The notes below the pieces were generated by a model. It saw only the letters and a list, made by a program, of their open reading frames with translations. It did not search any database and was not told the DNA's origin. Below, one piece after another: positions 5,440-60,705 of a stretch of 62,222 nucleotides of DNA (positions are counted from its first letter, which is position 1; each line of letters starts with the position of its first letter). Position numbers and translations under genes: made by a program. Source of the stretch: a virus (Duplodnaviria > Caudoviricetes); IMG/VR virus record IMGVR_UViG_3300025490_000001, positions 1-62,222 of that record; one strand, written 5' to 3'.

Positions 5440-5467
5440 TCTTTTTGGGCCACAGCCGCCCCCCGAC

Positions 5468-5497
5468 TTTTTCGCAATTTGCCTTGTTTGCGAAACA
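5468..5497 (+). promoter_or_regulatory. Late-promoter dyad, copy 2
   Basis: tttttcgcaatttgccttgtttgcgaaaca upstream of protease-capsid gene. Confidence 0.7.
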
Positions 5498-5519
5498 TGG
5501 TCGGAGGTCAAATGCTCGC

Positions 5520-20457: not shown

Positions 20458-20474
20458 GGTGGGCTCCTTGTGCT

Positions 20475-20765
20475 TGATGCACCGGGCGCTGGCCGGGCGG
20501 TGCATCAGGGGCCGTATGATGCACCAATTGATGCACCAGCAACCAAGAAACCCACGGAAATGCACCAGAATACCCGTCTACCAAGCCACAGAGCATGAGG
20601 CACCGAGTTGACGAACGCCTCACCAAATCAACAACTTGCAGCAAAATCAAGCCCTTGGCGGGTGTGCGTGGCCCCGATGCTCGACTGGACGCAGCCACTT
20701 CTAAGGGCTTGTCACTGAAGCGAAAAAGGCCGCTGGTGCGGCCTTGATGCACTGGGCGGTGCATA
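20475..20765. other. attP region of phage A with integrase arm-type repeats TGATGCAC(C)
   Basis: Repeats at 20475, 20499 (inverted), 20517, 20529, 20559 (partial), 20745, 20758 (inverted), flanking the dusA core on both sides. Confidence 0.75.
20608..20718 (+). pseudogene. dusA: Phage-borne replacement 5' end of dusA (att core about 20668-20691)
   Basis: Translates MTNASPNQQLAAKSSPWRVCVAPMLDWT then diverges and stops; VAPMLDWT is the DusA N-terminal motif. Confidence 0.8.
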
Positions 20766-35267: not shown

Positions 35268-35503
35268 CGCGCGATGCCGACTATGACAAGCGCCTGGCCG
35301 AAGCCAGCAAAACCCTGGGCGGCAACGCCCTGAAGATGGTCGGCTTGATCCTGCAGAAGCACGATGCGGCAGTGATTGAGGCCAGCATGGAGGCCATCGA
35401 GGCCGCTGTGGCTGCCGAGCGCGAGGCGTGTGCGCAGTTGTGCGAGGAATTTAAGGGCTACCACGGTGACGTTTGCGCCGCCGCCATCCGAGCAAGGGGG
35501 TAG
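35264..35503 (+). CDS. Hypothetical protein
   Basis: AEREACA..CAAAIRARG phage motif. Confidence 0.6.
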   Translation: MTRDADYDKRLAEASKTLGGNALKMVGLILQKHDAAVIEASMEAIEAAVAAEREACAQLCEEFKGYHGDVCAAAIRARG

Positions 35504-35505
35504 GC

Positions 35506-35766
35506 ATGAGGAACGAAAAACAGGTCGAGGCATCCACCACCAAGAATCGTGGCCTGGTGTACCAGCAGATCGCAGCGGTGTTCGACCAGCTGCCGGAGAG
35601 ATTCAAGGCCACCGAGCTGTACGAGCTGGCAAAGATGCCCAGCACTCACTCGATGCAGCGCCGGATGCTGATTGCATCGGTGCTGGTGCACGACTTCAAG
35701 TGCATGCAGATGAACAGCCCAGGCGGCCGTGGCCGGCACTGGAAGAAGCCGGGAGCTGTGACTTGA
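35506..35766 (+). CDS. Hypothetical protein (possible winged helix)
   Basis: Coupled to terL start; start re-called at 35506. Confidence 0.5.
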   Translation: MRNEKQVEASTTKNRGLVYQQIAAVFDQLPERFKATELYELAKMPSTHSMQRRMLIASVLVHDFKCMQMNSPGGRGRHWKKPGAVT

Positions 35767-37145
35767 CGACACGCTGGGCCCCACTGCCTGGCGCGCAGTT
35801 CCAATTCCTGACGTGCCCGATCTACGAGGCGCTGATGCACGGCACGCGGGGCGGCGGCAAGACGGATGCGCTGCTGATGAGTTTTGCGCAGCACGTGGGC
35901 AAGGGCTGGGGCCAGCACTGGCGCGGTGTGCTGTTCCGACTCACCTACCCGCAACTGGCGGACGTGGTGGCAAAGAGCCGTAGGTGGTTTGCGCAGATAT
36001 TTCCAGAGGCGCGATTCAACAAAGCCGACTACTACTGGGAGTGGCCGGGCGGGGAAATGCTCATGTTCCGGTACGGGGCAACAGAGGGGGACTACTGGAA
36101 CTACCATGGACACGAATATCCATGGATCGGATTCGAGGAACTCACGAACTGGCGCGACCTAAGTTTCTATGAGGCCATGCACTCGACCTGCCGCAGCAGT
36201 TATCCCGGTATGCCGCGCATGGTGCGGGCGACCTGCAACCCGTTTGGCAAAGGCCACGGCGCAGTGCGGGACAGATTCAGGCTAGGCGAGGGTGGCGTAC
36301 CGTCTGGCCAGGTGATCCGCGACGATGGGGAAAAGCCGCGCGTGGCGATTTTCTCCAGCATTCTGGAAAACCGCATTCTGCTGGCCAACGACCCGGACTA
36401 TTTGGCAACATTGCAGGCGCTCAAAGACCCTAACAGGCGCAAGGCCTGGTTGAGCGGCGACTGGGACATTCACGTCGGCAGCTTTTTCGACAGCGTGTGG
36501 AACGCCGCGCGGCATGTGATCGAGCCGTTTCCAATACCTGCAAGCTGGAAGGTGTGGAAGGCCATGGATTGGGGCTATGCGGCCCCGTATTGCGTGTTGT
36601 GGCTGGCGATGGACCCGGACGGATGCATTTACGTCTGGCGCGAACTGTACGGCGCGGGCGAAAAGGCGGGCGAGGGCAGCAGAGAACCTGCTGATGCGGT
36701 TGCGCGCAAGATCAAAACGGTCGAGCAGCATGACGAGCGGCTGGGTTACGAATACCGCATGAATCTGGCCGACCCGGCGATTTTCTCGAACGTGGGCACC
36801 ATGCAGACCATCGGCGGCATTTTTCGCGCGCATGGTGTGCGGTGGCAAGAGGCGTGGAACGGCAAAGGTTCTGTGGCAAACGGTGCGCAGGAAATCATGC
36901 GCCTGCTGGCTGAAGACAAGCTCAAGATTTTCAGGACGTGCCGACACTTGATTCGAACCCTGCCCGCGCTGGGCCCGGACGAAACCGACCCCGAGAAATA
37001 CGACAGCGACGGGGAGGATCACGCGGCCGACTGCCTGCGCTATGGCGTGATGCGCCGACGCCGCAACCCGGACGCCGAACAAAAGTCCGATGAGCCGGAT
37101 GAGCCGACAACAAAATCCGAAGCAGGATATATTTTGAAAGTGTGA
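35763..37145 (+). CDS. terL: Terminase large subunit
   Basis: GTRGGGKT, IGFEEL, ATCNP, AMDWG, EDHAADCLRY; TTG start 35763. Confidence 0.92.
   Translation: MTTRWAPLPGAQFQFLTCPIYEALMHGTRGGGKTDALLMSFAQHVGKGWGQHWRGVLFRLTYPQLADVVAKSRRWFAQIFPEARFNKADYYWEWPGGEMLMFRYGATEGDYWNYHGHEYPWIGFEELTNWRDLSFYEAMHSTCRSSYPGMPRMVRATCNPFGKGHGAVRDRFRLGEGGVPSGQVIRDDGEKPRVAIFSSILENRILLANDPDYLATLQALKDPNRRKAWLSGDWDIHVGSFFDSVWNAARHVIEPFPIPASWKVWKAMDWGYAAPYCVLWLAMDPDGCIYVWRELYGAGEKAGEGSREPADAVARKIKTVEQHDERLGYEYRMNLADPAIFSNVGTMQTIGGIFRAHGVRWQEAWNGKGSVANGAQEIMRLLAEDKLKIFRTCRHLIRTLPALGPDETDPEKYDSDGEDHAADCLRYGVMRRRRNPDAEQKSDEPDEPTTKSEAGYILKV
37079..37116 (+). promoter_or_regulatory. Putative late promoter motif, copy 1 (upstream of portal)
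   Basis: ACAAAAGTCCG-N21-CAAAAT. Confidence 0.5.
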
Positions 37146-37146
37146 A

Positions 37147-39021
37147 ATGCTCACAGCAGACGAAAAGCCAAGCGCCGAAGCGCGCGAAACACCGGCGACG
37201 GATCAATTGGCGCAGAAGTGGGGGCGGCGTATCGAGCAGGCTCGCAAGCACTGGGACAAATTCCATAAGCGCGTGCGCCACAACCGCGAGACGGTCGCCG
37301 GGTTCGACTGGACTGCCGACCCGCGCAGCCCCGAGTTCTACAGGCCGCGGGCGAACCTGATTCAGGGCACCATCACCGCGCTGCTGCCTGCGATCTACGC
37401 TCGCAACCCGGAAATCAGCGCGATACCGCTGCACAAAGCCGGCAACCTGAAGCTGTTTTGCAAGACGATCGAGACGGTGACCAACCGGCACCTCGACCGC
37501 GCCGACCTCAAGGGTAAAGCCAAGGCCACGGTGCGGGCTGCACTCACGACCAGCTTTGGGATCGTCAAAGTGATGTACCAGCGCGACATCAAGCGCGACC
37601 CGATCATCCAGAGCCGCATCAACGACACGCAGGACAACATCGTGGCACTGGAGCGCCTGCTGGCCGAGCTCAAAGACCCGGCGCAGCGCGGCGATCTGGA
37701 GGCCAAGCGCGCAGAGCTGGAGCAGATGGTGGGCGCACTGGAAGAGCAGGTCGAAGTCACGGCAGCAGAAGGCTTGGTGATCGACCGGGTGCTGACGGAA
37801 AACCTGTTGATCGAGCCCGGCGTGTGCGAGTTCTGGGACTACCGCGACGCAGATTGGCTGTGCCAGATCGTGCCGATGAAGAAGAGCCACGCCGAGGCCG
37901 TCTATGGCGTGAAGCTGGACAAGGCCAAAGCCTACAGCGACGGCAAGCAAGGCGGTGCAAAAGACGGGCGATTTGCCAGCGCATCATCTGCGGGCGCAGA
38001 CGATGACAGGCAGATTGCCGTGCTGGAAATCTGGGACAAGACCACCCAGCGCGTGTACACGATGGCCGATGGGTGCGATCACTGGCTGCGCGAACCCTAC
38101 AGTCCGCCCAAAGCGGGTGAGCGCTGGTTTCCGTTTTTTCTGCTGCCGTTTCAGGTAGTTGACGGGCAGTTTGTGGCCCCGTCGCTGGTGGACCTGACCG
38201 AGAAGCTGCAGCACGAGCACAACAAAGCGCGCGAGCGGTTCAACCAGCACCGGGATTTGTGCCTGCCGGGCTGGATTGCTGGGGGCGATATCAGCGAAAA
38301 GAGCATCAAGCGCTACAGCGACAGCGCCATTGGCGAAATCACGATCATCGACACCGAGGGCCGACCGCTCAATCAGGTGATCATCCCGCGCCAGCATCCG
38401 CCCATCGACGCCGCGGTGTACGACACCAGCGCAGTGCGCTACGACTGGGAGCAGGTGACGGGGCTGCAAGACGCGGCCCGCTCGACCGTGGTGAAGGCCA
38501 AGACCGCGACCGAGGCTAACATCCTGCAGCAAAACCTAAGCGGCCGGGTGAGCGAGTTCCAAGACCAGGTGGAAGACTGGCTGCAAGAAATCAGCCGCTA
38601 CGCTGCCGAGGTGCTGCTGCAGGAGCTGACGCCCGCGCAGGTTGAGCGCATCATGGGGCCGCCAGAGGTGCAGGTAATCGACGTAGGCGGACAGCAGATG
38701 CAGGTCGAAGTAAAACCTTACGACTGGCCGGAGCTTGCGCGCGAGCAGGTGTTCGACATGATCGAGATGAAGATCAGGGCGGGCACCACTGGCGCGCCAG
38801 ACAAGATGCAGCAGCAGGAAGCGTGGTCACAGGTGCTGCCGATCGTGCAGGGCCTGATCACGCAAATCGTCCAACTGCAAGCCGCCGGGCAAGACACGGA
38901 GCCGCTGGCGCACCTGCTGCGCGAGACCGTGCGGCGCTTCGATGAGCGACTGGAGGCGGAGCAGTTCATCCCAAAGCCGCAGCAGCAGCCCGTGATGCCG
39001 CCTGACGCGCCGCCCATGTGA
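37147..39021 (+). CDS. Portal protein (podovirus type)
   Basis: 624 aa after terL; VLEIWDK, KTATEANI; Q/P-rich C-terminus. Confidence 0.85.
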   Translation: MLTADEKPSAEARETPATDQLAQKWGRRIEQARKHWDKFHKRVRHNRETVAGFDWTADPRSPEFYRPRANLIQGTITALLPAIYARNPEISAIPLHKAGNLKLFCKTIETVTNRHLDRADLKGKAKATVRAALTTSFGIVKVMYQRDIKRDPIIQSRINDTQDNIVALERLLAELKDPAQRGDLEAKRAELEQMVGALEEQVEVTAAEGLVIDRVLTENLLIEPGVCEFWDYRDADWLCQIVPMKKSHAEAVYGVKLDKAKAYSDGKQGGAKDGRFASASSAGADDDRQIAVLEIWDKTTQRVYTMADGCDHWLREPYSPPKAGERWFPFFLLPFQVVDGQFVAPSLVDLTEKLQHEHNKARERFNQHRDLCLPGWIAGGDISEKSIKRYSDSAIGEITIIDTEGRPLNQVIIPRQHPPIDAAVYDTSAVRYDWEQVTGLQDAARSTVVKAKTATEANILQQNLSGRVSEFQDQVEDWLQEISRYAAEVLLQELTPAQVERIMGPPEVQVIDVGGQQMQVEVKPYDWPELAREQVFDMIEMKIRAGTTGAPDKMQQQEAWSQVLPIVQGLITQIVQLQAAGQDTEPLAHLLRETVRRFDERLEAEQFIPKPQQQPVMPPDAPPM

Positions 39022-39052: not shown

Positions 39053-40162
39053 ATGAAAAAATGGAAGCAGCAATGGATGCAACGCCTGATGAAGCCGGCC
39101 GATGGTGAGGGCGGCGACCTTGGTGGCGGCGGTGCCACGGCGGCCGCGATAGAGGCCATGGGCACAGCGCCAGACAGCCAGGCGCAAGAACTGCCGATCG
39201 AATCGCCCGCTGACGCGCAAGCGCAACCCGAAGCGCAGCCGACCGAATCAGTTGCCGAGCAGCCCGCGCGCGGCAAGTCGAAAATGGAGGCCATGCTCGA
39301 CGCGCTGACGGATGATCCAAATACAAGTGCCAAGCCAGCCGCCGAGCCAGTCAACAAGGTCGAGCCAGTCAAAGCCACTGACCAACCCAAAGCGCCCGAG
39401 CAAGAAGTGGCCGAACTGCTGGACGGCGTGAAGTCCGAGCGCGGCCGTGAGCGCATCAAGCAGGCGTTTGCTGAGAAAAAGCAGTTGGAGCAGGAGATCG
39501 GGAGCTTCCGCGAAATGGTGCGCTCAACCGGCATGAGCCCGCAGCAGTTTGCCCAGACGTTGGAGTTTGGCCGCCTGGTGAGCAGCGGCGACGAGAAAAA
39601 CATCCGCATGGCGCTGGAAATGATCGAGGGCCAGCGGGCCGAGCTGTACCAGAAGCTGGGCGTGGAAGCGCCCGGCGTGGATTTGCTGCAGGGCCACGAC
39701 GACCTCAAACAGGCCGTGGACGGCATGGAAATCACGCGCCAGAAGGCCGTTGAACTGGCCAAGTTCCGCAAGCAGCAGCAAGAGGCGCAGCAGCACCAGC
39801 AGGCGCAGCAGCAGACGGTGCAGCAGCAGCACGAGTACCAGCAGCAGGTGCAGCAGGCCACGCAGTCGATGGACGCCTACCTGCAGACGCGGGCCAACGA
39901 GGTGGACCACCCGGCGCGAATCAAGGTGATCACGGAGCACTTCAAAAACCCGGAAAACTTACAGCGATTTGTGAGCACATACCAGCCGCACCAGTGGGCG
40001 GATACCGTGCGGCTGATGTACGACGGCATCCACATCCCGCGCCAAGCCAGCGCACAGCAGCAGCCGATTCGCTCGCGCCCTTCTACCTTGGGTGCGCCCG
40101 CCGCAAACGGCGCATCGGCCATTGACCGAATCGCGCAACGCATGGAAAGCATGGGCCTTTAA
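39053..40162 (+). CDS. Scaffolding protein (putative)
   Basis: Low-complexity N-terminus, Gln-rich coiled coil, between portal and capsid. Confidence 0.65.
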   Translation: MKKWKQQWMQRLMKPADGEGGDLGGGGATAAAIEAMGTAPDSQAQELPIESPADAQAQPEAQPTESVAEQPARGKSKMEAMLDALTDDPNTSAKPAAEPVNKVEPVKATDQPKAPEQEVAELLDGVKSERGRERIKQAFAEKKQLEQEIGSFREMVRSTGMSPQQFAQTLEFGRLVSSGDEKNIRMALEMIEGQRAELYQKLGVEAPGVDLLQGHDDLKQAVDGMEITRQKAVELAKFRKQQQEAQQHQQAQQQTVQQQHEYQQQVQQATQSMDAYLQTRANEVDHPARIKVITEHFKNPENLQRFVSTYQPHQWADTVRLMYDGIHIPRQASAQQQPIRSRPSTLGAPAANGASAIDRIAQRMESMGL

Positions 40163-40182
40163 TTCAATCCCCGGAGAAAGCA

Positions 40183-40539
40183 ATGTCACAAGCAGCACAA
40201 CTTCAAATCAGCCAGCCCTACTACGCCGACACCAGTACGCCACTGGCCGCCAGCGCCACGTTCACCGGGGCAGCCCGAGACATGGGCGCCAGCAATGCAG
40301 AGTTCCGTTCGTTCAGCGCGACGTTCTTTGCATCGCACGCCAGCGCAACCAACGGAGCCAAGATTCAGATGTCGAACGACGGCATCGCCTGGGTGGATGC
40401 AGCCGTAGCCACACTGGCCGCCAACGTGCCCCAGTCCCTGAGCGTGCCCGTGGTGGCGCGCTACTACCGCACGCAGCTGATCAACGGCGCCACGCTGCAA
40501 ACCGCTGTGGCCGTCAACTCTGCTGCATCGCGCACCTAA
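40183..40539 (+). CDS. Small beta-rich virion protein (decoration candidate)
   Basis: STPLAASATFTG..ARYYRTQLING. Confidence 0.55.
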   Translation: MSQAAQLQISQPYYADTSTPLAASATFTGAARDMGASNAEFRSFSATFFASHASATNGAKIQMSNDGIAWVDAAVATLAANVPQSLSVPVVARYYRTQLINGATLQTAVAVNSAASRT

Positions 40540-40575
40540 CAAAAATCCGTTGAGGGGTTGACACCCTGCAATAAT
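40539..40575 (+). promoter_or_regulatory. Putative late promoter motif, copy 2 (capsid leader)
   Basis: ACAAAAATCCG-N20-AATAAT. Confidence 0.55.
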
Positions 40576-40581
40576 CCATTT

Positions 40582-40830
40582 GCCAGTGCTGCATCGCTGT
40601 GCTGGCTGGTCCGTGATGAGCGTAAGCGGGGATCGCCACCCGCAACGGATCAGCCGGCATGACGATGCAGAACACGCCGAATTTGTCGCCGCATCGGTGG
40701 GGTCGCGTCCACCAGCGCAGAGCGCATCAGGCCAAGCCGTACCCGAGTCGCGCCGGGAGCCGAGATGTGCTGAATTGACGGGCTTGCGTGCCGTCACGGT
40801 GTGAAAGGTCAAGCACAAACCCTTTCATTT
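40582..40830 (+). ncRNA. Candidate structured RNA / capsid 5' leader
   Basis: Long stem with G-U pairs (40589-40614 with 40645-40670) and repeated hairpins with TCGC loops. Confidence 0.55.
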
Positions 40831-40841
40831 CGGAGCGACAA

Positions 40842-41888
40842 ATGCCTATTTCAGCACCAGACCTCGCTGAACTCACCAAAATCTCACTAGATGAGTTTCT
40901 GCGCAACATGCCCGTGGACCAGATCGCCACGGAGCGCCCACTTCTCAAAAAACTGATGGCCGGCCGCAAGACGTTCTTGGGCGCCCGGCAAAACATCGTC
41001 GAAAACATCCGCCGCGCCTACGGCTCCAACTTCAATTGGGCCTACGGTGAAGACCCCGTGGTGTTCAACAAGCGCAACACCACCGAGCAGGCCGCTTTCC
41101 CGTGGCGGCGCGCCGTTGATGGCCTCTACCTCGACTACGACCGCCTTTTCGGCAACGGCATCAAGGTGCGCGAGGGTGAGCGCGGGGCCTTTAAGCTGGA
41201 GCAAAACGAGAAGGTGCAACTGCTGAACCTGCTCGATGAGCAAATGGAATCCCTGCGCGAAGGTTTCATGCAGCGCCTCGACCTCGAACTGCACCGCAAC
41301 GGCACCGCCGACCCCGATTCAATCGTCGGCCTGGACACGCTGGTCTCTGTCGCGCCTACCACTGGCACGGTGGGCGGCCTTGATCGTGCTACAGCGACTT
41401 ACTGGCGCAACCACGCAGAAACCGGCATCTCGACGGCCACGGTGGGCACGCTGGCGCAGCGCATGGAACTGGCCTGGCGGCGCTGCATCCACAACGGCGG
41501 CTCCCCGGACTTCATCCTTGCCGGCGGCGACTTCATCGACGCATACCGGCGCGAGATCACCGTGACGCAAAACGCCAGCGCGGGCAGCGTCAAAAACCTC
41601 GATGCAGGGGTGGGCAGCGGCGTGAGCACAGGCCTGCACTTCAAGGGCGTGGAAATCATCTGGGACCCCCAGTTCGAAGAAATGCAGACGCTCGAAAGCC
41701 CGCTGGTTTCGTGGAACCGGCGCTGCTACTTCATCAACACCAAGTTCATGAAGTACCGCGACGACGACATGGACATCGTGACACCGGTGCGCCCGCACGA
41801 CACGCTGGCCATGTACGCGATGGTGAACCTGCGCTGCGCGCTGTCGATCAGCCGCGCCAACGCGCACGCTGTGCTGGCCATCGCCTAA
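40842..41888 (+). CDS. Major capsid protein
   Basis: 348 aa; IVGLDTLV..GTVGGLDRA..YWRN, SPDFIL, FKGVEIIWDP; start re-called at 40842. Confidence 0.88.
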   Translation: MPISAPDLAELTKISLDEFLRNMPVDQIATERPLLKKLMAGRKTFLGARQNIVENIRRAYGSNFNWAYGEDPVVFNKRNTTEQAAFPWRRAVDGLYLDYDRLFGNGIKVREGERGAFKLEQNEKVQLLNLLDEQMESLREGFMQRLDLELHRNGTADPDSIVGLDTLVSVAPTTGTVGGLDRATATYWRNHAETGISTATVGTLAQRMELAWRRCIHNGGSPDFILAGGDFIDAYRREITVTQNASAGSVKNLDAGVGSGVSTGLHFKGVEIIWDPQFEEMQTLESPLVSWNRRCYFINTKFMKYRDDDMDIVTPVRPHDTLAMYAMVNLRCALSISRANAHAVLAIA

Positions 41889-41939
41889 CGACCAGGCCCG
41901 GCCCGGTGCCGGGTCATTCCCTTCCCTTTGGAGATTTCA

Positions 41940-42269
41940 ATGAGCGACAAAATCGAAGTTCCGATGATCGAGGTCATGGTGCGGCGCGATGCCAACACCA
42001 TTACCACCGTGGCCGTGCCGCCCTACGAGTTGACGATGCTGCGGCAGATGTTCGGCAAGGAAAACGTCACCGGCGACACCGTGGTGGGCCGCATCGAGGT
42101 GGCACCAGACCAAGAGGCCGAGCGCCTGAGCGCCAAGTACGGGCCGGGCAAGGTGATCAAGGTGTACGGCGACGACGGCGGCGAGCGCTTGCGCGAGCTG
42201 GTTGAAAAGGCCGCGTCCTCGCACCAGGCGGAAAGCGCACCCAAGGCCCGAGCGGCAGCCGCCAAATAA
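41940..42269 (+). CDS. Hypothetical virion-associated protein
   Basis: GGAG RBS, follows capsid. Confidence 0.6.
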   Translation: MSDKIEVPMIEVMVRRDANTITTVAVPPYELTMLRQMFGKENVTGDTVVGRIEVAPDQEAERLSAKYGPGKVIKVYGDDGGERLRELVEKAASSHQAESAPKARAAAAK

Positions 42270-42281
42270 AGGGGCACCAAG

Positions 42282-44129
42282 ATGCCGCAGCCGACCGCAT
42301 ACCAGCGCACCGTCGATTTCACCGAGCGCGATGGCGACGACACCAACCACGGGGGCATCAATGCCGAGTTGGATGCGGCGGCGCTTTCTGTAAACCAAAT
42401 CCGGGCCAACCTCGCCCTGATCCAAAAAGACGACGGCACACTGGCCAACGGCAGCGTGGGTGCCGAGCAACTTGCGGCCGGCGCATTCGACGCTGTGCAA
42501 GCTTCGGTGAACGCGGCGACCCAGGCCGCCAGCGGGTCTGCGCAGTCGGCTTTGACGTCGGCTTTGTCGGCCCAGCAGGCGGCGACCGATGCAGCGCAGA
42601 CCATCAGCACGGTGCAGCAGCACGCAGCAGCGGCGCTGCTGAACGCGCAATCGGCGTCAGTGTCAGCGTCGGCGGCGTCATCTAGCGCAGCCAGTGCGAC
42701 AGGATCAGCAGCCAGCGCCACGGCCTCGCAGGGGGCAGCAGCCGCCAGCGCGAGCAGTGCGGAAGCCTCGGCCTCGGCGGCGCTGGCCTCACAAACTGCG
42801 GCTGCCACAAGCGCCACGAACGCAGGGGATTCCGCTGGCTCCGCAGCCACCTCGCAGGCCGCAGCGGCCACCAGCGCGAGCAGCGCAGCGACGTCGGCGG
42901 CTGCTGCAACGACCTCGCAATCAGCTGCGGCCACAAGTGCGGCTGCTGCGCTGGCATCACAAGGAGCGGCGGCCACCAGTGCAGCCGAAGCCGCTGCCAG
43001 TGCGCTCAGTGTAGATGCTGCAAACTTGGTGCAGGTTACTGGCGACCAGTCAATCGGAGGCGTCAAGACACTCCTCGAATTCCCCATACTCCCCGCATCG
43101 CTGAGCGGCTTTGCCAAAGCAGACCAAAACCGCAGTGCATTTATCAAAACCGGCGCAACAACGGTGAGTATCCGCGCCGAAACGCGAGTCGAAATCGCGG
43201 GGCGTTGGCACCGCTTCGAGGTGCAAACCGCAGTACCAATGCCTGCACTGGTTGCTGGCGAGGACTACGCTATTTGGTGTACGCCTGATGGGGCGCTGGC
43301 CTGCAATGCCGACCCATTCAGTAGTCCGGCTGCACCGCCGGTTGGCGGCTCGCGCAAAATCGGTGGCTTCCATTATGGCCTGGTTGCACCCGGCACTACG
43401 GTTGCCGGGGGCGGATTTGCCACTACCGGGTTCACCAACCAGGGCGGCAGCATGATCTGGACGCAAGCCGCGGTGGATCGAATTGCAGGCATCAACGAGT
43501 TCAGTTTGTGGGATTTGGCTTGGCGCTGCAAAGGCCAGCAGCGCGGCATGGTGCTAGACCCGCAAACCGAATCTTGGCACGCGATTTATTTCTGTGGCGC
43601 AAACCACATTGTCAACGGCATCAGCCGGTTTAACACTGATGTTGCCAGCGGCACGGTATTGCCGCGTATTCCGCTTGCATACGGCGGCAACGGCACACTG
43701 GCATACGGGCGAATGTCGCAATATGAGGCGGAAGAAATCGCTTCTAGCTTCAATTTGCGTATGCCAGACCCGCACGAGTTTCGCAGTGCTGCGTTTGGCG
43801 TGACGGAATTTCAGTCGCTGGGCGGCGCGGCAGCTACCATACCCAGCACACTGAGGCAATCAGGCTACACCAGCAGGCTCGGCATCGAGCAGGCAACTGG
43901 GCACCAATGGATATGGGCGCGAGGCAATAGCTCAACAGGCGCTGTCGGCTGGATTGCAGGCCCCCACCGGGGGGATGCCCACAACAACCTGTTCGTTACA
44001 CTGCTGGGTGGCGGTCGCAGCAGTGCTGCGCATTCCGGCTCTCGGGCGTCCGCCTCGAGCAACGTCGCGTGGGACTCGAACTGGCACATTGCGTTGCGCG
44101 CTGCCGGTGACCACCTGAAGCATGTTTGA
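42282..44129 (+). CDS. mtd: Tail fibre with C-terminal Mtd-like (C-type lectin) domain; DGR target
   Basis: Anchor N-terminus, Ala/Ser-rich shaft, Mtd-like C-terminal part ending GG..SGSRAS..W.SNW.IALRA; VR at 3' end. Confidence 0.88.
   Translation: MPQPTAYQRTVDFTERDGDDTNHGGINAELDAAALSVNQIRANLALIQKDDGTLANGSVGAEQLAAGAFDAVQASVNAATQAASGSAQSALTSALSAQQAATDAAQTISTVQQHAAAALLNAQSASVSASAASSSAASATGSAASATASQGAAAASASSAEASASAALASQTAAATSATNAGDSAGSAATSQAAAATSASSAATSAAAATTSQSAAATSAAAALASQGAAATSAAEAAASALSVDAANLVQVTGDQSIGGVKTLLEFPILPASLSGFAKADQNRSAFIKTGATTVSIRAETRVEIAGRWHRFEVQTAVPMPALVAGEDYAIWCTPDGALACNADPFSSPAAPPVGGSRKIGGFHYGLVAPGTTVAGGGFATTGFTNQGGSMIWTQAAVDRIAGINEFSLWDLAWRCKGQQRGMVLDPQTESWHAIYFCGANHIVNGISRFNTDVASGTVLPRIPLAYGGNGTLAYGRMSQYEAEEIASSFNLRMPDPHEFRSAAFGVTEFQSLGGAAATIPSTLRQSGYTSRLGIEQATGHQWIWARGNSSTGAVGWIAGPHRGDAHNNLFVTLLGGGRSSAAHSGSRASASSNVAWDSNWHIALRAAGDHLKHV
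44008..44111 (+). repeat. DGR variable repeat (VR)
   Basis: 104 bp, 96/104 identical to TR; all mismatches opposite TR adenines. Confidence 0.95.
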
Positions 44130-44147
44130 GGCTGCGAAAGCAGCCTC
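44128..44147 (+). other. DGR target-recognition hairpin downstream of IMH
   Basis: GAGGCTGC-GAAA-GCAGCCTC perfect 8-bp stem. Confidence 0.88.
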
Positions 44148-44155
44148 TGAAGCAG

Positions 44156-44548
44156 ATGATGGAACAAACAGACCAAACCGCAGCAAAGACTGAGCCGCGT
44201 GCAGCGATGGCGGTAGTGGTGCGCCTCGACGGTTTTGTCAACTACATTTACCCTATGTTGACGAATACCAGTCGCCAACATAGAGTGTTGCGAGACACAA
44301 TGATCGCAGCTATTTTTGAGCAGTATCGTTTATTTCATGCTGCCGGAAAAAGCAATCAAGTCTCGCGGGTATACGAGGCAGACGCCGGGCTGGCGTACCT
44401 CAAAGAGCTTTTGCGCTTCATGGCAGCGCCTGAACGCAAGCTGGTGTCACGTCGCCAATACGAGATTGCCAGCGTGCATCTCGCAGAGACGGGCGCCATG
44501 CTTGGGGCTTGGGCAAAGTCTGCGCAAAAGAGGCAAGGAGGGGGCTAA
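44156..44548 (+). CDS. avd: DGR accessory variability determinant
   Basis: About 130 aa basic helical protein between VR and TR; YIYP, ADAGLAYLK.LLRF, ETGAMLGAW. Confidence 0.88.
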   Translation: MMEQTDQTAAKTEPRAAMAVVVRLDGFVNYIYPMLTNTSRQHRVLRDTMIAAIFEQYRLFHAAGKSNQVSRVYEADAGLAYLKELLRFMAAPERKLVSRRQYEIASVHLAETGAMLGAWAKSAQKRQGGG

Positions 44549-44549
44549 A

Positions 44550-44653
44550 GTGGCGATCGCAACAATGCTGCGCATTCCGGCTCTCGGGCGTCCAACTCGA
44601 ACAACGTCGCGTGGAACTCGAACTGGAACATTGCGTTGCGCGCTGCCGGTGAC
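44550..44653 (+). ncRNA. DGR template repeat (TR)
   Basis: Intergenic VR copy with 8 in-frame AAC/AAT codons, 20 adenines. Confidence 0.95.
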
Positions 44654-44819
44654 GATAAAAGTCAAGGCTCCTGTACTTGGTGCCGCTACGGCAACACCAA
44701 GCGACCTTTTTAGATATGGTCAGCCCCTCTTGGCCTGCTTCGGCAAACACACTAAGCGGTTCGGAGAACGGGGAGTAGGGCTTTGCCCGAAACCCGCGCC
44801 GACTTATAAGGAGTCCGCG

Positions 44820-45806
44820 ATGGGCAAAAAATACAAAAACTTGTTTGATCAAATTACCGACCCGGACAACCTTTGGGAAGCGTACCGCAAGGCATCGCTG
44901 GGCAAGCGCCTGACTATGGGCTACCTGCTGTTTAAGCAGGACGAAGCCGCAAACCTGTCTTGGTTGCGCCGGAGCCTAGTGGCTGGAACCTATCGGTCCG
45001 GCGAACCGCATACGTTTATGGTGTACGAGCCAAAGCCAAGGGAAATCAGCGCCCTGCCTTTCGTTGATCGCGTGGCGCAACACGCCTTTTGCAATATAGT
45101 TGAGCCGCTGTTTGAGCGCGCATTCTTGCCGCAAAGCTATGCCTGCCGCATTGATCGCGGAACGCACGCAGCAGCCGCATCGGTGCAGTCGATGTTGCGC
45201 CGAATCATTGCTGGCGGAGGGGACCCATGGGTACTAAAGACCGACTTTTCACGCTACTTCGCGTCAGTCCGCAGGAGTGTGCTGCGCCAAGAATTCGCTC
45301 GCAAAATCAGTTGCAGCAGGACGCTGGAGCTTTTGCGGCGATTTATCCCGCCCGATGGTTGCGGCCTGCCTATTGGTAGCCTTACCAGTCAGCTTGCGGC
45401 CAATATCTACGGGCACATCTATGACCGATGGCTCGTACACACAGTGGGCGTAAAGCAGTTTGCCCGGTACATGGACGACGTTGTGGTGGTTGGTTACAGC
45501 CGAGAAGCAATGGCGCTACTGCAAACGCAAGCGGCATCGTTCACCCTCCAGAACATGGGCTTGCGCTTTTCGCGCTGGAGTGTACTGCCATGGACTGCCG
45601 GGGTAAACTTTTGCGGCTATCGAATTTGGCCCACACACAAGCTGCTCCGCAAATCCAGTGTTATTCGAGCCAAGCGCAAACTGCGGAATTTCGATGCCCG
45701 CGGGGACGCCGAGGGCCGACTCAAGTTCCTTGCTGCATGGCGCGGCCACGCGCAGTGGGCAGACACCCACCACCTGATTCAACACCTAGGAGTCGAGCAT
45801 GACTGA
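44820..45806 (+). CDS. brt: DGR reverse transcriptase
   Basis: PFVDRVAQHA, LKTDFSRYF, GLPIGSLTSQ, RYMDD, FCGY; AAGGAG RBS; 328 aa. Confidence 0.95.
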   Translation: MGKKYKNLFDQITDPDNLWEAYRKASLGKRLTMGYLLFKQDEAANLSWLRRSLVAGTYRSGEPHTFMVYEPKPREISALPFVDRVAQHAFCNIVEPLFERAFLPQSYACRIDRGTHAAAASVQSMLRRIIAGGGDPWVLKTDFSRYFASVRRSVLRQEFARKISCSRTLELLRRFIPPDGCGLPIGSLTSQLAANIYGHIYDRWLVHTVGVKQFARYMDDVVVVGYSREAMALLQTQAASFTLQNMGLRFSRWSVLPWTAGVNFCGYRIWPTHKLLRKSSVIRAKRKLRNFDARGDAEGRLKFLAAWRGHAQWADTHHLIQHLGVEHD

Positions 45807-46212: not shown

Positions 46213-46448
46213 AAACTCAACTGCGCCGCATCGCTGCATGGCTCAGTCAGGGCGTGAACTGCATCCTGCTCGGCGGGCATCACGATGTAACCGTGAGCGC
46301 TCGCGCCTATCTCAGTCGCAACCGGCGAGGCTGGCGGCTGGTTTATCGCGTCGCCAATGCGGTGTTTTTCTGGCAGGACGATCATTGCCGGGATTCGTAC
46401 CTGGCTGATGTGGCTTGGGCCAAGGAAATTTTGGAGTTCGAGGAATGA
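46209..46448 (+). CDS. Phage hypothetical protein
   Basis: Homologous to 17468-17716. Confidence 0.6.
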   Translation: MKTQLRRIAAWLSQGVNCILLGGHHDVTVSARAYLSRNRRGWRLVYRVANAVFFWQDDHCRDSYLADVAWAKEILEFEE

Positions 46449-47508: not shown

Positions 47509-47576
47509 AAATCTTGGTCTGCGCTGGCCACGGCGGCACCACAGAGGCGTCGCTGATTTTCTGGTGGCTGGCCTAA
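47505..47576 (+). pseudogene. Deleted amidase endolysin remnant
   Basis: MKILVCAGHGG matches phage A amidase MKILIAAGHGG, then stops after 23 aa. Confidence 0.7.
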
Positions 47577-47600
47577 AGCCGCATATTTTGGAGAGCTAAC

Positions 47601-53283: not shown

Positions 53284-56200
53284 ATGACCATCGAATTCGA
53301 CGACCTGATACCGCAAAACACCGACATCAGGTTCGACGACCTGATACCGAACGGCGACCCGTCACAACCCCGCACTCGCCGCGCCGTGCCCGAGCGCACT
53401 CTCGGCACGGCGGCGCGCGACCTTGCCGCTGGCGCGCTGCAAATCGGGCCAACCGCCATCAAAGGCGTGGCCGAAATTGGCAGACTGGCCACAGGCGACA
53501 GGCTGGGCGCGGGCCTGTCTGGGCGGATGGAGCGCGGCATGCAGGCGATCCGGGAGGTAGTCGGCTCCGAGCGCGCCGAGGCCATGCGCGAGAATTTCAT
53601 GGCCGACATGGCCGACGATGAGGTCGGCGTCTTGCAAGCAATCAGCCAGAACCCGGGCGCGATTGGCAACATGGTGCTGCCTACCATCGGAAGCATGTTT
53701 TTGCCGGTCGGCGCTGGCGTGGCGGGGGCACGGCTAGCCACGGCTGGCAAAGCGGTGCAGGGCATGAGCAAGGCCGAAATCGCCGCACGGGTGGCGCGCG
53801 CGCAAACTGTGGCAGGCGTCGGCACGATTACGGCCCAAAACGCGGCATCGACGTTCGCCGAACTGGTGGGTCAGGGCGTGCCGATGGAGGACGCATACCT
53901 TGGTGCGGCTATCACGGTGCCGTTTACCGTGGTGGCAGGCGCTCTGACGCGAGGCGGCGCTGAGGGTGCCGTCACGCGAGCGATTACCGGCACTGGCAGC
54001 AGATCAGCGGCGGGCCGCGTCGGGCAAGTGGGTGCAGCGGGCTTGATGGAGGGCGGTCAAGAGGCGATCGAGACGGTTGGGCAAGTGACGGGCCGCGCGG
54101 CCGGGTCAGGGGATGCGCCAAGCGGCACGGCGGCAGTAAAAGAGGTGGCCGTGGCAGGGCTGCTTGGCGCGCTGATGGGCGGCGGCGTGAATGTGGCCAC
54201 CCAAGCAGCCCAGCGCGGCCAGCCCGAGCAGCCAGCCATAAACCTGACCGACTACCAAGAAGCGGCGCGGCAGGCTCTCGGGCAAACCACACCCAGCCAA
54301 GCCCCAGCGCAGCCGGTGGCGGCACTCGATGCCGAGGCGACGAACCGGATTTTGCAGGCCATCGAGCGCGCCCAGAATGTCCAAAACGCAACACCAGCAG
54401 CCCGAACCCAAGCCCCGGCCCAAACCGCGCCAGTTGAAGCGCCGGCGCCAGCAGGAAGCGATGCAACCCCGGCCGCTGTACTACCCGACGCGGGAGGAAG
54501 TGGCGACGTACAAGCCGCTGGGCTGACGTTCGATGACTTGGTGCCCGCTACTACCGAAGCACCGCAAGCTACTACCGAAGCGGCTCCGGTAACGCCTGAT
54601 GCGCCGGTGGATGGTGCCATCACTGATGAGGGTACCAAGCCCGATGTCTCCCTCACGAATGAGGGTAAGACACCCATCCTGCAAAACCGCAACCGCGCCA
54701 CGCCGTCGAGCATTGCGCAGATGCAGAGCATTGCCACCCAGCCCGACTATGGGCGGATGGGCTTCTCGCGCGACTTTGCCAACGGCGCGCCGGTGGTGGC
54801 CGGAGGTGAGATCGCACCGGAGCAGATGGGCCGCCAAGATGTGGCCGTGGCCAGCGACGGACGCCGCATCCCGGTGCAGTACGCCGTGATCGAGGCCAGC
54901 GATGTGCTGACCTCAAACCGGGCGGACGGCGCGGCCAACCCGGACTACGGTAACCAGGCGGTGCAGCGCATCCGCGCAATTGCGGGCAACGGGCGCGTGG
55001 CTGGCTTGCAGGTGGCTTACAGCCAAGGCACTGCGGCAGGGTACACGCAGGAACTGGCGCAAGACACCCTGCACGGCGTGAACCCGGATGTGATTCGCGC
55101 CATGCGCGCGCCGGTGCTGGTGCGCGTGATGCCGGCCGATCAAGTGACGGCCGACATTGGGGATGTGTCCAACACGGTGGGCAACCTGAACCTGTCGGCG
55201 GTGGAGCAGGCCAACAACGACGCGGCGCGCGTGAATTTGAGCGCTTTGAAGTTTGCCGAGGACGGCAGCATTACCCCGGAGGCGGTGCGCCAGTTTGTGC
55301 GCGCCATGCCGCAAGCCGAACAAGGCGGGCTGATCGACACCAACGGGCAGCCAAGCAAGCAGGCAGTGGATCGCATCAATGCGGCTGTGTTTGCCAAGGC
55401 CTACGGCAACGACGAGCTGGTGCGACTGTACGCGCAGGCCCAAGACCCCGAAGCGCGCAACGTGCTGTCGGCGCTGGCGCAAGTGGCGCCGAAGATGGCC
55501 CGACTGGAAGGCGCTGGTGCGCTCGATATCCGCGACGTGGTGACGCAGGCGGCCGAGATCGCGGTCAATGCGCGGCGCGAGGGCCGGGCCTTGGCGCTGG
55601 CGGCGCAGCAGGTTGACATGGCAGCCGACCCCATGGTGGGCGTGGTGCTGGAGTTGTTTGCCCGCAACGCACGCAGCGTCAAGCCGGTGGTGGAGGCCCT
55701 AGGCAATGCCGCCGACTTTGCCTATACTGAGGCAACCAAGCCCGCAGCCGATATGTTCGGCGAGGTGCCGCGCGCCAGCCGCGCCGATGCCATCAACCTA
55801 CTGAGGCCGCAAAATGAACGAGCAAGCCAAGAAAATCTGGAACAGCCCGCAGGGCGTGGGCCTGTTCCGGTCGATGCTGGCCGGGCAGCAGCCGAGCCCG
55901 CAGCAGCAGCAGGCCCTGGGCCAACTCAAGCAGGCCGACCCGCCGCAGATCAAGCAGCCGACCAACCCGCCAGCCAGCCAACCCTAAGCAGCTACACGCC
56001 CGAGGAAGTCACCCAGCGCCTTGAGCGGCTGGAGCAGGCAGAGCGAGAGCGCCAGCAGCAGGAGCGCCAGGCCGAGCAGCGCGAGCGCGCCGACCGCGAG
56101 CGCGGCGAGTTCACCCTGGCCGGCAGCGATCGCGCGGCCGACGCCAACCCGAACCAAGGCGATATTTTCGATCTGCGCGAAGATGGAGGGGCCTACAATG

Positions 56201-59200
56201 CGCAAGCCCCCCGACGCCCCTACACCGATGACCGACAACTCCAACTGTTCCTCGATCGTGGACCTGTCGAAAGCCAGGCAGGAGCGGCCGCTGTTGCTGC
56301 CCAGCGGGCGGCCGTGTCCGCCGTGGATGACATACGATCCACCGGCACCATACTTGGCCTCGCCTTGTCTGGTGATTACGCTGCCCGTCAAAGGGTCAGC
56401 CTCGTCGGACAAAAAGTAGGCAGCGCCGAAGACCTCGCCATTCTGGCGCAGGTGTACCGCGACCCGCGCTTTGAGACGTTCCGCGTGGTGTTCGTGAACG
56501 ACTCCGGCGGCGTGGTTTCGCAGGTTGGCCTAACCAGCCGCCTGCCCGCATCGGTTGACGTCATCATCGGCAACGACATGGATGGCTACCTCGCCGAGCT
56601 TTCGGCCACGGCGCGCAACCGGGGCGCTACCGGGTACTACCTGTTGCACAACCACCCAAGCGGCATTGCCACCCCAAGCCGCGCCGATGTAAACCTGACA
56701 ACGGCGTTTGCAAGCCGGATGCCCATGCTGGAACTCCGGTCGCATGTGGTGATCGACACCAACGAATACTCGACCATCGACAGCCGCGGCGCTGTGCAGA
56801 CCCACCGCAAGGACTTTGGCCAGCCCGCCCCATACCGTGCGCAGGAATGGGCCGAGGTGAAAATTACCGGGCCGTCCGATGTGATGGCTGTGGCCAAGCG
56901 CCTGCAGGTGGACGAGGGCGCCATCACCCTGATCCACACCGACAGCCAGTACAACGTCAAGGCGATCAGCACGATCCCGAACGACGCCAGCACCATGAGC
57001 AAGGAAGAGCTCAAGAAGCTGGTGCTGAGGGCTTCCCTGCAGAAGCAGGGCGCCCAAGTGTTCGCGGTGGGTCGAGACAGCAAGGCGCTCGCGCGCATCG
57101 GCACCATCGTGGTGGACGCGATCTATGTCGAGGACAGTGGCCAAACTCAAAGCCTGAGAAGCATGGGTGTCATCGCTGGCGGTGCACCTTTGCCCAGCGA
57201 TCGGCGCACCCGCGTGAGCCCCGACACCAGCCCCGAATTCGCCTACCTTCGCCGGCAGGCGCAGCCAGCACCGATGCAGCGCGTGGCCGAGGATGGGCCG
57301 CAGTACGACCCCGAGCAGGCCCAAAGCCCCAACCGGGACGCGCTGGGCCGCTTTAAGTTCCGCCTGGGTGAAGTGGCGCTGGGCAAGCTGGAGGCGGCGT
57401 TGCGGCCGGCGCTGGATCTTTTCGGCATGCGCATGGCGTCGCCCGAGCTGCGCAAGCAGCTGCGCCAAATGAAGGCAACCATCGAAAAGGCCAAGCAATC
57501 GGCGGTAGATGTAGCCAAGGAGATGAGCGCCATGCCCGAGGCCGACCGGGTTATGGTGAGCGACATTGTGGAGAAGATGCTGGCACCGGGCGTGATTCCT
57601 CCCGAGCATGCGGTGCGCGTGGCCGACGCGATTACCCGCGCCATGGATCGGCAGACCGACGAGCTGTTGGAGTTGGGCATGCTGAGCAAGGACAGCGCCG
57701 AGCGCTGGCGCGGCCGCTACCTGCCGCGCATCTACAACCGCCAGACCGAGCTTGAGGGCGACCCGCTGGTCAAGCGCCTGTTCAAAACCGGGGTGCCGAC
57801 CATGGCGGGCATTGGTGGCGGATCGCTCAAAGGCCGGGGCATGTTCCAGGACGTGAGCGTGGACGCGGCGGACCAGTGGATTGCCCTGGGCTACGAGGTG
57901 CGCGATCCGCACTGGCGGCTCAATCAAGGCAAGCTCGAGCTCAATGACCCGAACGCGCCCAAGCTGGCGCGTGAGCAGGTGACGGTGTGGCGCGACTGGA
58001 CGCCGAGCGAGCGCGCGCAAATGGGCGAGATGCGCGACGCCATGTACCGCTACGTTGTGGGCTACACCTCGATGCAGCGCGACATTGCCGTGGGCCGCCT
58101 GTTCCACAGCATAGCCAACAACCCGGAATGGACGCGCCGCTCTGGCGCTGACGGCTTTGTGGAGGTGCCGGACACCGAGATTGCCGGCACCGGCGGCGTG
58201 AAGCGCTACGGCCGCCTGGCTGGCCTGTGGGTGCGCAGCGAAGTGATGACGCACCTGACCCAGTTTGAGGAAGGGGCCAACGACACGCTGCAACTGTACC
58301 GCGAGGCAATGGGGATTTGGAAGCAGGGCAAAACAGCGATGAACCCGGTCGCGCACTTCAACAACATCGTATCGAACCTGAGCATGGCGCACTTCGCTGG
58401 CGTGTCGTACTGGGACGGGCACAAATACCTGAACGCGACGCGCGATCTGATTCAGAACGCGCCCATGGTGGATGAAGCGCGAGACGTGGGGTTGTTCACT
58501 GGCAGCTTCACCCGCGAGGAGATGATGCAGAACCTGCCGCCCGAGCTGCAAAAGATGGCCAATATGCAGGAGAGCGGGGCGCGCAAAGGCGGCCGCTTGG
58601 TGCTCAACGCCGTGACGTGCTGGCTGCGCCAGCCGCTGACGCAAGCCTATGAAGCCGAGGACACGTTTTTCAAGTACCTGATCTACCGCGATGCGCGCCA
58701 GCAGGGCATGGAGCCCGCCGAGGCGATGGATTACGCCTTGCGCTACATCTTCGCCTACGACGATCTGCCAAGTGGGGCGCGCAAGGTGCGCGACTATGCG
58801 ATCCCGTTTTTCAGCTACACCTACAAAGCCGTCCCGGCCCTGCTGCATACCGCCATGGTGTACCCGTGGCGACTGGCGGCCCCGGCGGCGTTGCTGCACG
58901 GCATCAATGCGGTGGCCTACGCACTGGCCGCTGGCGACGAGGACGACGACTGGCTGGAAAAGCTCGTCAAAGGGCGCGAGCTTGAGGCCGAGGAGCGCGT
59001 GGCCATGCCCGACCACACGCGCGGCTTGAGCGCGCTCGGCTCACCCAAAACCATACGCCTGGGCACGGATGAGATCACGGGGCTGCCGGTGTTTCTGGAT
59101 GCCTCGCGCATCATTCCGGGCGGCGACATCTTCGACATGCGCAACCAAGCGGGCGGCATGGAATTGCCGGCCCCGCTAACACCCAATCACCCGATTCTCT

Positions 59201-60609: not shown

Positions 60610-60705
60610 ATGGGCCTTGCAACCCGTCGAACACCACACAAGCCAAGCCAGAAACAGCGAGAGCTACAATCCGTTTCCCCAGATTTTACGCGGGCGTTCC
60701 CCATC

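Follow-up and report, generated by a model that had tools for sequence, protein, structure and literature searches.

Structured leaders of phage late genes have been little studied beyond T4 and T7. The transcription unit of T7 gene 10, encoding the major capsid protein, combines a dedicated promoter and a structured 5' leader with a strong ribosome-binding site. In T4 the gene 32 protein represses its own translation through a pseudoknot in the leader of its message, in single-stranded RNA phages of the MS2 type the coat protein binds repeated hairpins with conserved loops, repressing translation or nucleating assembly, and the P22 scaffolding protein regulates itself post-transcriptionally. 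Other nascent phage RNAs act on the polymerase, such as the lambda nut site, in which a single-stranded motif (boxA) is followed by a hairpin (boxB), and the put RNA, ~70 nt long with two stem-loops and found in early operons. Here we describe an RNA element lying directly 5' of the major capsid gene in the 62,222-nt IMG/VR record IMGVR_UViG_3300025490_000001, the whole of which is referred to as the window. The element lies among the head genes of a temperate, podophage-like genome and spans positions 40540-40841 on the + strand, ~255 nt of which form a structured leader.

The arrangement resembles that of T7 gene 10 in that a podovirus capsid gene is apparently served by a dedicated promoter inside the structural block, with a stable hairpin at the start of the leader and a strong Shine-Dalgarno sequence, left exposed, at its end. 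The T7 leader, however, is short with a single hairpin and is made by a phage polymerase, whereas here it is ~255 nt long, pseudoknotted and composed of four modules, and the -10-like box has the look of a host promoter. With the T4 gene 32 leader it shares a pseudoknot in front of an abundantly needed phage protein, which provides a mechanistic precedent for the reading preferred below, but it differs in having several hairpin modules with U-C-G loops and no known binding protein. Variable stems, a conserved loop motif and several repeats also recall the operators and packaging signals of MS2, although those belong to RNA genomes, whereas this is the mRNA leader of a double-stranded DNA (dsDNA) phage with a different loop motif and a protein partner that is predicted. 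Two features of a generic structured cis-regulatory 5' leader were found, namely covariation on the mRNA strand and a fixed position and orientation without a terminator of its own. We rate the element as a structured phage mRNA leader that is unusual in its repeated-module, pseudoknotted design and has a wide, previously uncatalogued distribution. The favoured reading, held with moderate confidence, is that 40540-40841 comprises a dedicated promoter region and a structured, cis-acting 5' leader of the major capsid mRNA that sets its stability and translation. The element is present in a single copy, at a fixed position by the capsid start and in a promoter-like context, and from this we infer a cis effect of the RNA on expression of the capsid gene.

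An earlier note, made from the letters of the window, had proposed a structured RNA here, in a stretch of ~300 bp without a convincing open reading frame (ORF); the gap measures 302 nt, from the upstream stop codon at 40539 to the capsid ATG, and no ORF in it is kept across relatives. Folding energy by itself settles nothing. The leader has a minimum free energy of -121 kcal/mol (z = -2.86, with 1 of 200 shuffles folding equally well), but the opposite strand also folds better than its shuffles (z = -3.25), and since the scores of the two strands are similar it is the comparative evidence that is decisive. A search with the capsid protein recovered nine loci in bacterial genomes and metagenome-assembled genomes (80-91% identity) and 45 in IMG/VR (65-97%), and at all 54 of these the ~300 nt 5' of the capsid ATG align to the window. 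The main alignment accordingly holds 55 loci including the window, with 45 distinct sequences. When aligned simply with MAFFT, 84.9% of cells are paired, compared with 35.6-40.4% when partners are slid by 1-3 columns, and changes on both sides occur at 50 of 74 pairs. An alignment fitted to the model, which is biased towards nested helices, gave 88.6% against 34.4-39.1% on sliding, with compensatory changes in 56 of 71 pairs. None of 500 shuffles matched the observed values on any of five measures, whichever alignment was used. The check for covariation in relatives that had been suggested therefore gave strong compensatory support for a structured + strand RNA, and the claim that variable stems carry related, conserved loops was borne out, the stems covarying and the loops being near-invariant.

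The full model consists of helices P1, P2, P3, P4, P6, P7, P8 and P9 together with a pseudoknot; RNAalifold on the plain alignment returned P1, P2, P4, the long-range P3 and the pseudoknot pairing. The leader opens with a long hairpin (40589-40670, + strand, as are all features below unless stated) comprising P1, with P2 at its tip. P1 has 8 + 17 base pairs (bp) separated by one 1x1 mismatch: the outer strands are the CTGCATCG/CGATGCAG extension at 40589-96/40663-70, and the inner strands (40598-614/40645-61) pair over 17 positions with four G-U pairs, both just as the earlier note had listed them. Compensatory changes occur at each of the 25 pairs, with 84.5% of cells paired, and the helix is much shorter in L138, L193 and the L210 group. 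At its tip is a first module (40618-40643), in which the single strand GAGCGTAA precedes hairpin P2 with loop GATCGCCA; strand and loop are near-invariant, and 4 of the 5 pairs of the stem (40626-30/40639-43) covary.

Downstream of this hairpin a core domain (40673-40803) is closed by P3, whose strands at 40673-79 and 40797-803 are paired in 95.7% of cells and covary at 4 of 7 pairs. The second module (40680-40713) consists of the junction strand AATTTGTCGCCGCATC and hairpin P4 with loop GTCGCG. The P4 stem (40696-701/40708-13) is paired in 99.4% of cells, and while its loop and closing G-C pairs are invariant in 55/55 loci the outer pairs exchange between CG, GC, UA and AU. P6 (40722-28/40764-70 and 40730-32/40759-61, the whole spanning 40722-40770) encloses the third module, GCCGTA followed by hairpin P7 (40742-45/40754-57) with loop AGTCGCGC, which is paired in 99.5% of cells. 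All nine pairs of P6 covary, although only 60-84% of its cells are paired, the inner part being poorest at 60%, because insertions and deletions shift its register. By eye, an additional base on the 3' strand of P6 in the window falls within a helix that runs unbroken for 11 bp in L001 and L002. L130 has gaps in the P7 columns, and L184 and the L210 group lack P6 and P7 altogether. The fourth module is hairpin P8 (40776-40796, stem 40777-81/40791-95), with 5 of 5 pairs covarying and 91.7% of cells paired. The four local hairpins (40626-43, 40696-713, 40742-57 and 40776-96) had all been placed correctly from the single sequence, and their loops are indeed related, but the fourth loop (40782-90) is not free.

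Within that loop TGCGT (40785-40789) pairs with GCGCA (40715-40719), the strand directly after P4, to form the pseudoknot. It is paired in 100% of cells and covaries at three of its five pairs, with CG/GC in 15 cells, GC/AU in 10 and AU/CG in 21. Since the pseudoknot lies outside the covariance model, its pairing count is free of the bias of that model. Beyond the core, the purine-rich AAAGG arm of P9 (40804-40825) pairs with a pyrimidine-rich CCTTT in 94.6% of cells, within the TGAAAGG/CCTTTCA complementarity (40802-08/40821-27) that had been noticed before. It is a weak, A/U-rich hairpin of 5-7 bp, 6 nt 5' of the Shine-Dalgarno sequence, with a single covarying pair (GC to UA) and a purine arm that reads GGAAGG in most relatives. 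The Shine-Dalgarno sequence GGAG (40832-35) is invariant in 55/55 loci and unpaired in the consensus fold, and the capsid ATG follows at 40842-44. A scan for further stacked covarying column pairs returned the defined helices only, plus a weak 3-bp alternative. Two other candidate pairings were rejected: one between loop GUCGC and a GCGAC between the Shine-Dalgarno sequence and the AUG, as by eye the spacer motif is lost in several lineages that keep the loop, and one between GCGUAAG and the P8 loop, as the loop varies while GCGUAAG is constant. The pseudoknot and P3, along with the promoter spacing and the wider class of capsid leaders discussed below, had not figured in the earlier note.

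Among 3710 paired cells there are 400 G-U or U-G pairs and 146 A-C or C-A, and several G-U pairs are invariant; this excess argues for an RNA read from the + strand and rules out one from the minus strand, despite the similar z-scores. The element is also under purifying selection. Across 216 diverged pairs the four-fold degenerate sites of the capsid gene are 49% identical, compared with 68% for the leader, and within the leader identity is 72% in unpaired columns and 65% in paired ones. This is the conservation signature of an RNA, with loops and junctions kept as sequence and stems kept as pairs.

The element occurs, always as a single copy directly 5' of the capsid start, in the window and in ~70 related phage and prophage contigs with capsids that are 60-97% identical. 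The more diverged of these (capsids 60-77% identical) were added by scans with DNA patterns; a first, loose pattern gave 88 unrelated loci among the 119 new loci listed from IMG/VR and a stricter one was used next. A covariance model, R1, of 260 positions and 66 base pairs, with the pseudoknot left out, found one match in each of 65/65 expected sources (108-266 bits) and matched 40/40 sources of a second set, while 35 control loci gave a single weak, partial match (L070, 25 bits). R1 finds one copy in the window record and one in each of three host genomes. In the order to which the host of L001 belongs, 150 sampled genomes gave no R1 match besides G001, but this null is no evidence of absence, as no more than 13 candidates in each genome were scored. 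Wherever flanks were compared, a scaffold homologue lies 5' of the match and only a few nt separate its 3' end from a capsid homologue; some relatives and the window (the latter with a 118-amino acid (aa) ORF) have extra sequence between the scaffold gene and the promoter motif, and none of the aligned loci has any between the RNA and the capsid start. Among cultured phages a nucleotide search gave no match, and by protein nine records matched, all at <30% identity. The phages carrying the element are widespread and temperate, have diversity-generating retroelements and are found mostly in Betaproteobacteria, with at least one (locus L001) present as a prophage in a cultured strain.

A wider class of capsid leaders became apparent from L184, whose capsid is 39% identical to that of the window. 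Its leader is a minimal version of 81 nt that retains P3, a GUCGCUG junction, P4 with its loop unchanged, UAG, a strand of five bases complementary to the P8 loop, and P8. As P1/P2, P6/P7 and P9 are missing, the 81-nt version can be taken as the conserved core. The core is followed (L184 192-244) by a 7-bp GC hairpin with a 3-nt loop, then G and four U's, ~40 nt before the capsid start; this was not called a terminator by the scan and is the only sequence of its kind found. The segment before the GC hairpin repeats the five bases that the P8 loop contributes to the pseudoknot, so an alternative pairing is conceivable. When close relatives of the L184 capsid were sought in IMG/VR, only L184 itself was recovered. 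Homologues of this capsid number 369 proteins at E <= 1e-20 and lie on at least 356 IMG/VR stretches; the 80 best of these stretches were analysed. R1 recognises 9 of the 80 (E < 1e-3). Most of the other leaders are ~60-230 nt long with a stem of 4-7 bp and a loop N-N-U-C-G-Y-N-N, often preceded by G-N-G-U-A-A/G, and by eye some have a P9-like hairpin before the ribosome-binding site.

The hairpins of this wider family are concentrated in the leaders. Within 250 nt 5' of the capsid gene at 72 distinct loci there are 136 hairpins with a UCG loop, as against 52 in coding sequence of equal length and 37 on the reverse complement, and 64/72 distinct loci have at least one. In 57 of the 136 the 3' part of the loop is complementary (at least four Watson-Crick pairs) to the hairpin's own 14-nt 5' flank, compared with a mean of 16.6% and a maximum of 24% in 200 permutations of the flanks and with 3/129 hairpins from coding regions. 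GTA occurs within the last 9 nt of the 5' flank of 41% of leader hairpins and 8% of those in coding regions. From this pattern P2, P4, P7 and P8 of the window are seen to be four copies of one small module, a short single strand like G-N-G-U-A followed by a hairpin with a U-C-G loop, of which P8 at least demonstrably forms a pseudoknot between loop and flank. The number of modules differs between relatives. In the 305-nt leader of L194 (7684-7988) a P7-like module, AAGCCGAG and then a hairpin with loop UUCGCGU, is present twice in near-identical form, which suggests that modules may duplicate.

Comparison with catalogued RNAs supported the novelty that the earlier note had thought worth checking against Rfam. 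No family among the 4227 models of Rfam 15 reaches its gathering threshold at the leader, the only match in the window being the Phage_DGR RNA at 44676-44803. With E relaxed to 10, the best match in 40400-41000 was mir-2300 (21.1 bits against a gathering threshold of 90) and there was no riboswitch, while the leaders of 12 diverse relatives gave no match at E up to 0.1. ARAGORN found 0 tRNA or tmRNA genes in the whole window. A literature search found no description of the element, although it may be listed in the supplement of PMC10690425. That study reports candidate structured RNAs (csRNAs) from IMG/VR, the same kind of data, five of them typically 5' of the major capsid family PHA00201, so the element could be among them. 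Its csRNA passages, however, contain no motif with the architecture of this leader, and the PHA00201 label cannot be related to the capsid here; a passage in the same paper states that Rfam has no model of the T4 gene 32 leader pseudoknot.

The region before the leader has the appearance of a promoter. Directly after the upstream stop codon is an A-tract motif, ACAAAAATCC (40540-40549), which is kept in most of the 55 loci and is also present in diverged members, constantly 21 nt 5' of the -10-like box; it may be an UP-like or activator element of the leader promoter. The -10-like box AATAAT (40570-40575) has T at position 6 in 55/55 loci and A at positions 2 and 4 in at least 90%, and its conservation at A2 and T6 corresponds to the sigma-70 -10 pattern; the predicted transcription start is ~40582. 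Between them is TTGACA (40558-40563), near-invariant in the main group, but at only 6 nt from AATAAT it is too close to serve as its -35. A scan for consensus promoters called none here, and the 16-18 bp between sigma-70 hexamers was not found. The earlier observation that the structure starts right after a promoter motif therefore stands as to position and the -10-like pattern, but not as to canonical sigma-70 spacing. In the most diverged members, by eye, a TTGAC-like hexamer comes straight after the A-tract, and a spacer of 15 nt separates it from a -10-like hexamer. The TTGAC thus lies 6-7 nt from the -10-like box in the columns of L001-L054 and at the normal -35 position in diverged relatives, a shift of ~9 bp.

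TTGAC is often in the loop of a weak hairpin, P0, which is not universal and floats in register. In 41 distinct sequences its mean energy was -7.0 kcal/mol on the + strand, -5.8 on the minus strand and -4.5 when shuffled. P0, with the GGATTTTTGT that follows, was considered as a minus-strand terminator and rejected on these grounds, the energy barely beating that of shuffles, and there is no minus-strand gene to the right. A second candidate copy of the A-tract motif at 37079, with 3 mismatches and inside the terminase ORF, was treated as a chance match, 28 of 100 shuffles giving one like it. Just 5' of the A-tract motif, five relatives (L040, L044, L046, L050 and L130) have a GC-rich hairpin and T-run that by eye look like a terminator; if it terminates, transcription of the capsid gene must restart at the promoter motif. 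On the basis of these motifs we conclude that the element probably has a promoter of its own, with a predicted start near 40582, seven nt before P1. No terminator-like site was called by the scan in 40540-40841, that is, between the RNA and the capsid gene, and assembled metatranscriptome contigs join leader to capsid gene in the window (X6, 40097-42536; X17, 40592-40939), with another (X20), from a relative, spanning 40678-40842. The ends of such contigs are not transcript ends, and DNA carry-over is possible.

Under the favoured reading of a cis-acting capsid leader, transcription from the internal promoter would start at ~40582 and the leader would form the 5' part of the capsid mRNA, folding in three parts: the 5'-terminal hairpin P1/P2, the core closed by P3, which contains P4, P6/P7, P8 and the pseudoknot of the P8 loop with the strand after P4, and P9 before the unpaired Shine-Dalgarno sequence. 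Structures at the 5' end hinder 5'-end-dependent decay in Proteobacteria, and a first effect may be that a transcript opening with a 25-bp helix and a compact core is protected from such decay. In a second, non-exclusive effect the three or four near-invariant loops could act as an operator for an oligomeric protein, a proposal that comes from the resemblance of near-invariant loops on variable stems to repeated protein-binding sites and for which there are precedents in T4 gene 32, in the operators that RNA-phage coat proteins bind and in the P22 scaffolding protein. The preferred binder would be a structural protein of the phage, either unassembled capsid or scaffold, so that translation of the capsid is tuned to demand, though this is speculation. 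A stronger version, in which unassembled capsid or scaffold binds the invariant U-C-G loops of an array of small pseudoknot-hairpin modules and couples translation, and perhaps procapsid nucleation, to head assembly across a large lineage of temperate podophages, is tentative and on the present analysis doubtful.

Several points weigh against the favoured reading. The binding of a protein to the loops is predicted, and their invariance could instead reflect tertiary contacts in a self-contained fold. Adjacency to the capsid gene might be a matter of mere linkage, and so complex a pseudoknotted fold exceeds what 5'-end protection alone would need. The 6-nt spacing of TTGACA and AATAAT in the main group makes for a non-canonical sigma-70 promoter, and in the window there is no terminator after the 118-aa ORF, so read-through from upstream genes is possible. 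The contigs from RNA libraries give neither the strand, the ends nor the level of a transcript. Finally, the hairpin and four U's that follow the L184 core would fit attenuation or antitermination better.

The last point leads to the alternative of processive antitermination, in which the nascent leader, with or without a phage protein, would modify the polymerase so that it reads through terminators in the ~20 kb of late genes, in the manner of HK022 put RNA (PMC9378689) or of lambda nut and N. The element does lie directly after a promoter-like motif and before a long, co-oriented block of genes, a promoter-proximal position like that of the cis-acting nut and put elements, and its module layout of single strand then hairpin is similar to boxA-boxB; two intergenic + strand terminator-like sites are also present downstream, at 46344-65 and 47564-82. 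Late-region terminator-like sites are nevertheless no commoner than in shuffles (20 against 19.3 expected, and 5 against 10.4), and no Q- or N-like protein was recognised among the genes scanned against Pfam and PHROGs. The architecture is unlike the two stem-loops and ~70 nt of put RNA, no put- or nut-like sequence was found and by eye no boxA-like sequence is seen in 40540-40841, and this model, which we consider unlikely, does not call for the tight, constant distance to the capsid ribosome-binding site. The two sites (46344-46365 and 47564-47582) lie after the retroelement cassette and before a collagen-repeat tail-fibre gene.

A trans-acting or structural non-coding RNA could also be cut from the leader, for example by RNase III in the 25-bp P1, and serve as a cofactor of assembly or packaging, as a self-associating RNA or as a decoy for a host defence or regulator. 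The complex fold, invariant loops and promoter of its own would suit such an RNA, and the P4 and P7 loops both contain the self-complementary palindrome CGCG. P1, a near-continuous duplex of at least about two helical turns that is maintained by covariation, would be long enough for an RNase III substrate, judged against the intergenic RNase III sites of T7 as the standard of comparison. An independent small-RNA gene, however, would be expected to end, and although a promoter-like motif is present there is no terminator or defined 3' end before the capsid ribosome-binding site. In every case the element keeps the orientation of the capsid gene and lies within a few nt of its start. R1 found no further whole copies in the 62-kb record, matches to GGGTCGCGTCC with up to 2 mismatches number 27 against 40.5 expected there, and hairpins with UCG or TCGC loops number 64 against 56.5 in shuffles and do not cluster elsewhere. 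The prohead RNA of phi29 is likewise a structured RNA encoded by a podovirus, the loops of which pair between molecules, but the leader has no match to it or to any other Rfam family, and continues into the capsid message without an end of its own, in a phage with a full-length large terminase. A separate role in trans is thus quite unlikely.

A riboswitch-like sensor, in which the core of P3, P4, pseudoknot and P8 binds a small molecule or ion and gates expression of the capsid, would account for the conserved junction nucleotides that the 81-nt version retains, for the unpaired positions being the most conserved and for the terminator-like hairpin right after the L184 core. In the window family, however, the expression platform of mutually exclusive structures that should accompany an aptamer was not found: the covariation scan revealed no conserved alternative pairing that masks the Shine-Dalgarno sequence or forms a terminator, and GGAG is unpaired. 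The one candidate for masking the ribosome-binding site, CCGAA (40677-81) with UUCGG (40829-33), was rejected as by eye it does not covary. Interchangeable modules repeated in varying number are unlike a single ligand pocket, and with no riboswitch matched in Rfam at even the most relaxed threshold such a sensor appears very unlikely.

That the conservation comes from a small protein gene, or from a site acting at the DNA level (an operator or a packaging site, for instance), is effectively excluded. The window does contain a 74-codon TTG ORF (40580-40804) and a 39-codon ATG ORF (40659-40778) on the + strand, and the A-tract and TTGAC motifs close to the promoter probably act as DNA. Neither ORF, however, nor a 210-aa one on the minus strand, matches Pfam or PHROG, and the conserved ORF that the earlier note had named as telling against an RNA is not there: no frame on either strand is open across the family, the minimum stop-free stretch being 15-33 codons per frame, and of the 53 distinct lengths of the element 27 are not multiples of three. 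A protein-binding DNA site would not produce compensatory substitutions across helices up to 130 nt apart together with an excess of G-U.

The genes around the element, all on the + strand, form a head-gene block: a full-length large terminase (35376-37145), a portal (37147-39021), a 369-aa protein (39053-40162) without a Pfam or PHROG match, labelled scaffold by position only, the 118-aa ORF (40183-40539), the 302-nt gap, and the major capsid gene (40842-41888; phrog_9953, major head protein, E = 1.9e-37). In most relatives the scaffold homologue directly precedes the element, so the 118-aa ORF is an insertion between the two. It has only a weak likeness to the galactose-binding domain PF22633, scoring 18.8 bits where the cut-off is 27.8, is absent from the relatives whose flanks were compared, and resembles an insertion of the moron or decoration type; some relatives have extra sequence at the same spot, in five cases with a terminator-like hairpin.

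Downstream, 42282-45806 is a complete diversity-generating retroelement, comprising an Mtd-like tail-fibre gene (PF21916; 42282-44129) as its target, an Avd-like gene (44126-44548), the Phage_DGR RNA and a reverse-transcriptase domain in the ORF at 44316-45806. Its variable and template repeats (44008-44111 and 44550-44653) are 92% identical and 542 nt apart, and an RNA-library contig that joins 44007 to 44550 is most simply accounted for by collapse of the assembly across this repeat. At 53284-59673 a 2129-aa ORF with ddrB-like ParB and RadC-like JAB domains is probably an ejected internal virion protein. The record seemingly joins parts of two phages, the podophage genome with the leader beginning after the segment 1-20565. 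The first ~19 kb encode a large terminase of the lambda gpA type (862-2904), a fused protease and capsid of the HK97 type (5091-7388) and tail proteins. An integrase gene comes next (19399-20565), and there is a second integrase-like gene at 60610-61713.

What has been found is a large, strongly covarying, pseudoknotted RNA without an Rfam model, in front of the most highly expressed structural gene. It merits an Rfam entry, with which hundreds of viral contigs would be better annotated. The prophage in a cultured strain makes experiments feasible, and the repeated modules and the 81-nt core of L184 offer clear handles for mutagenesis. Should no structural protein bind the loops, the leader would still be a compact, naturally occurring element for expressing a gene strongly or stabilising its mRNA; if one does, it would be a new case of assembly-coupled translational control in a dsDNA phage.

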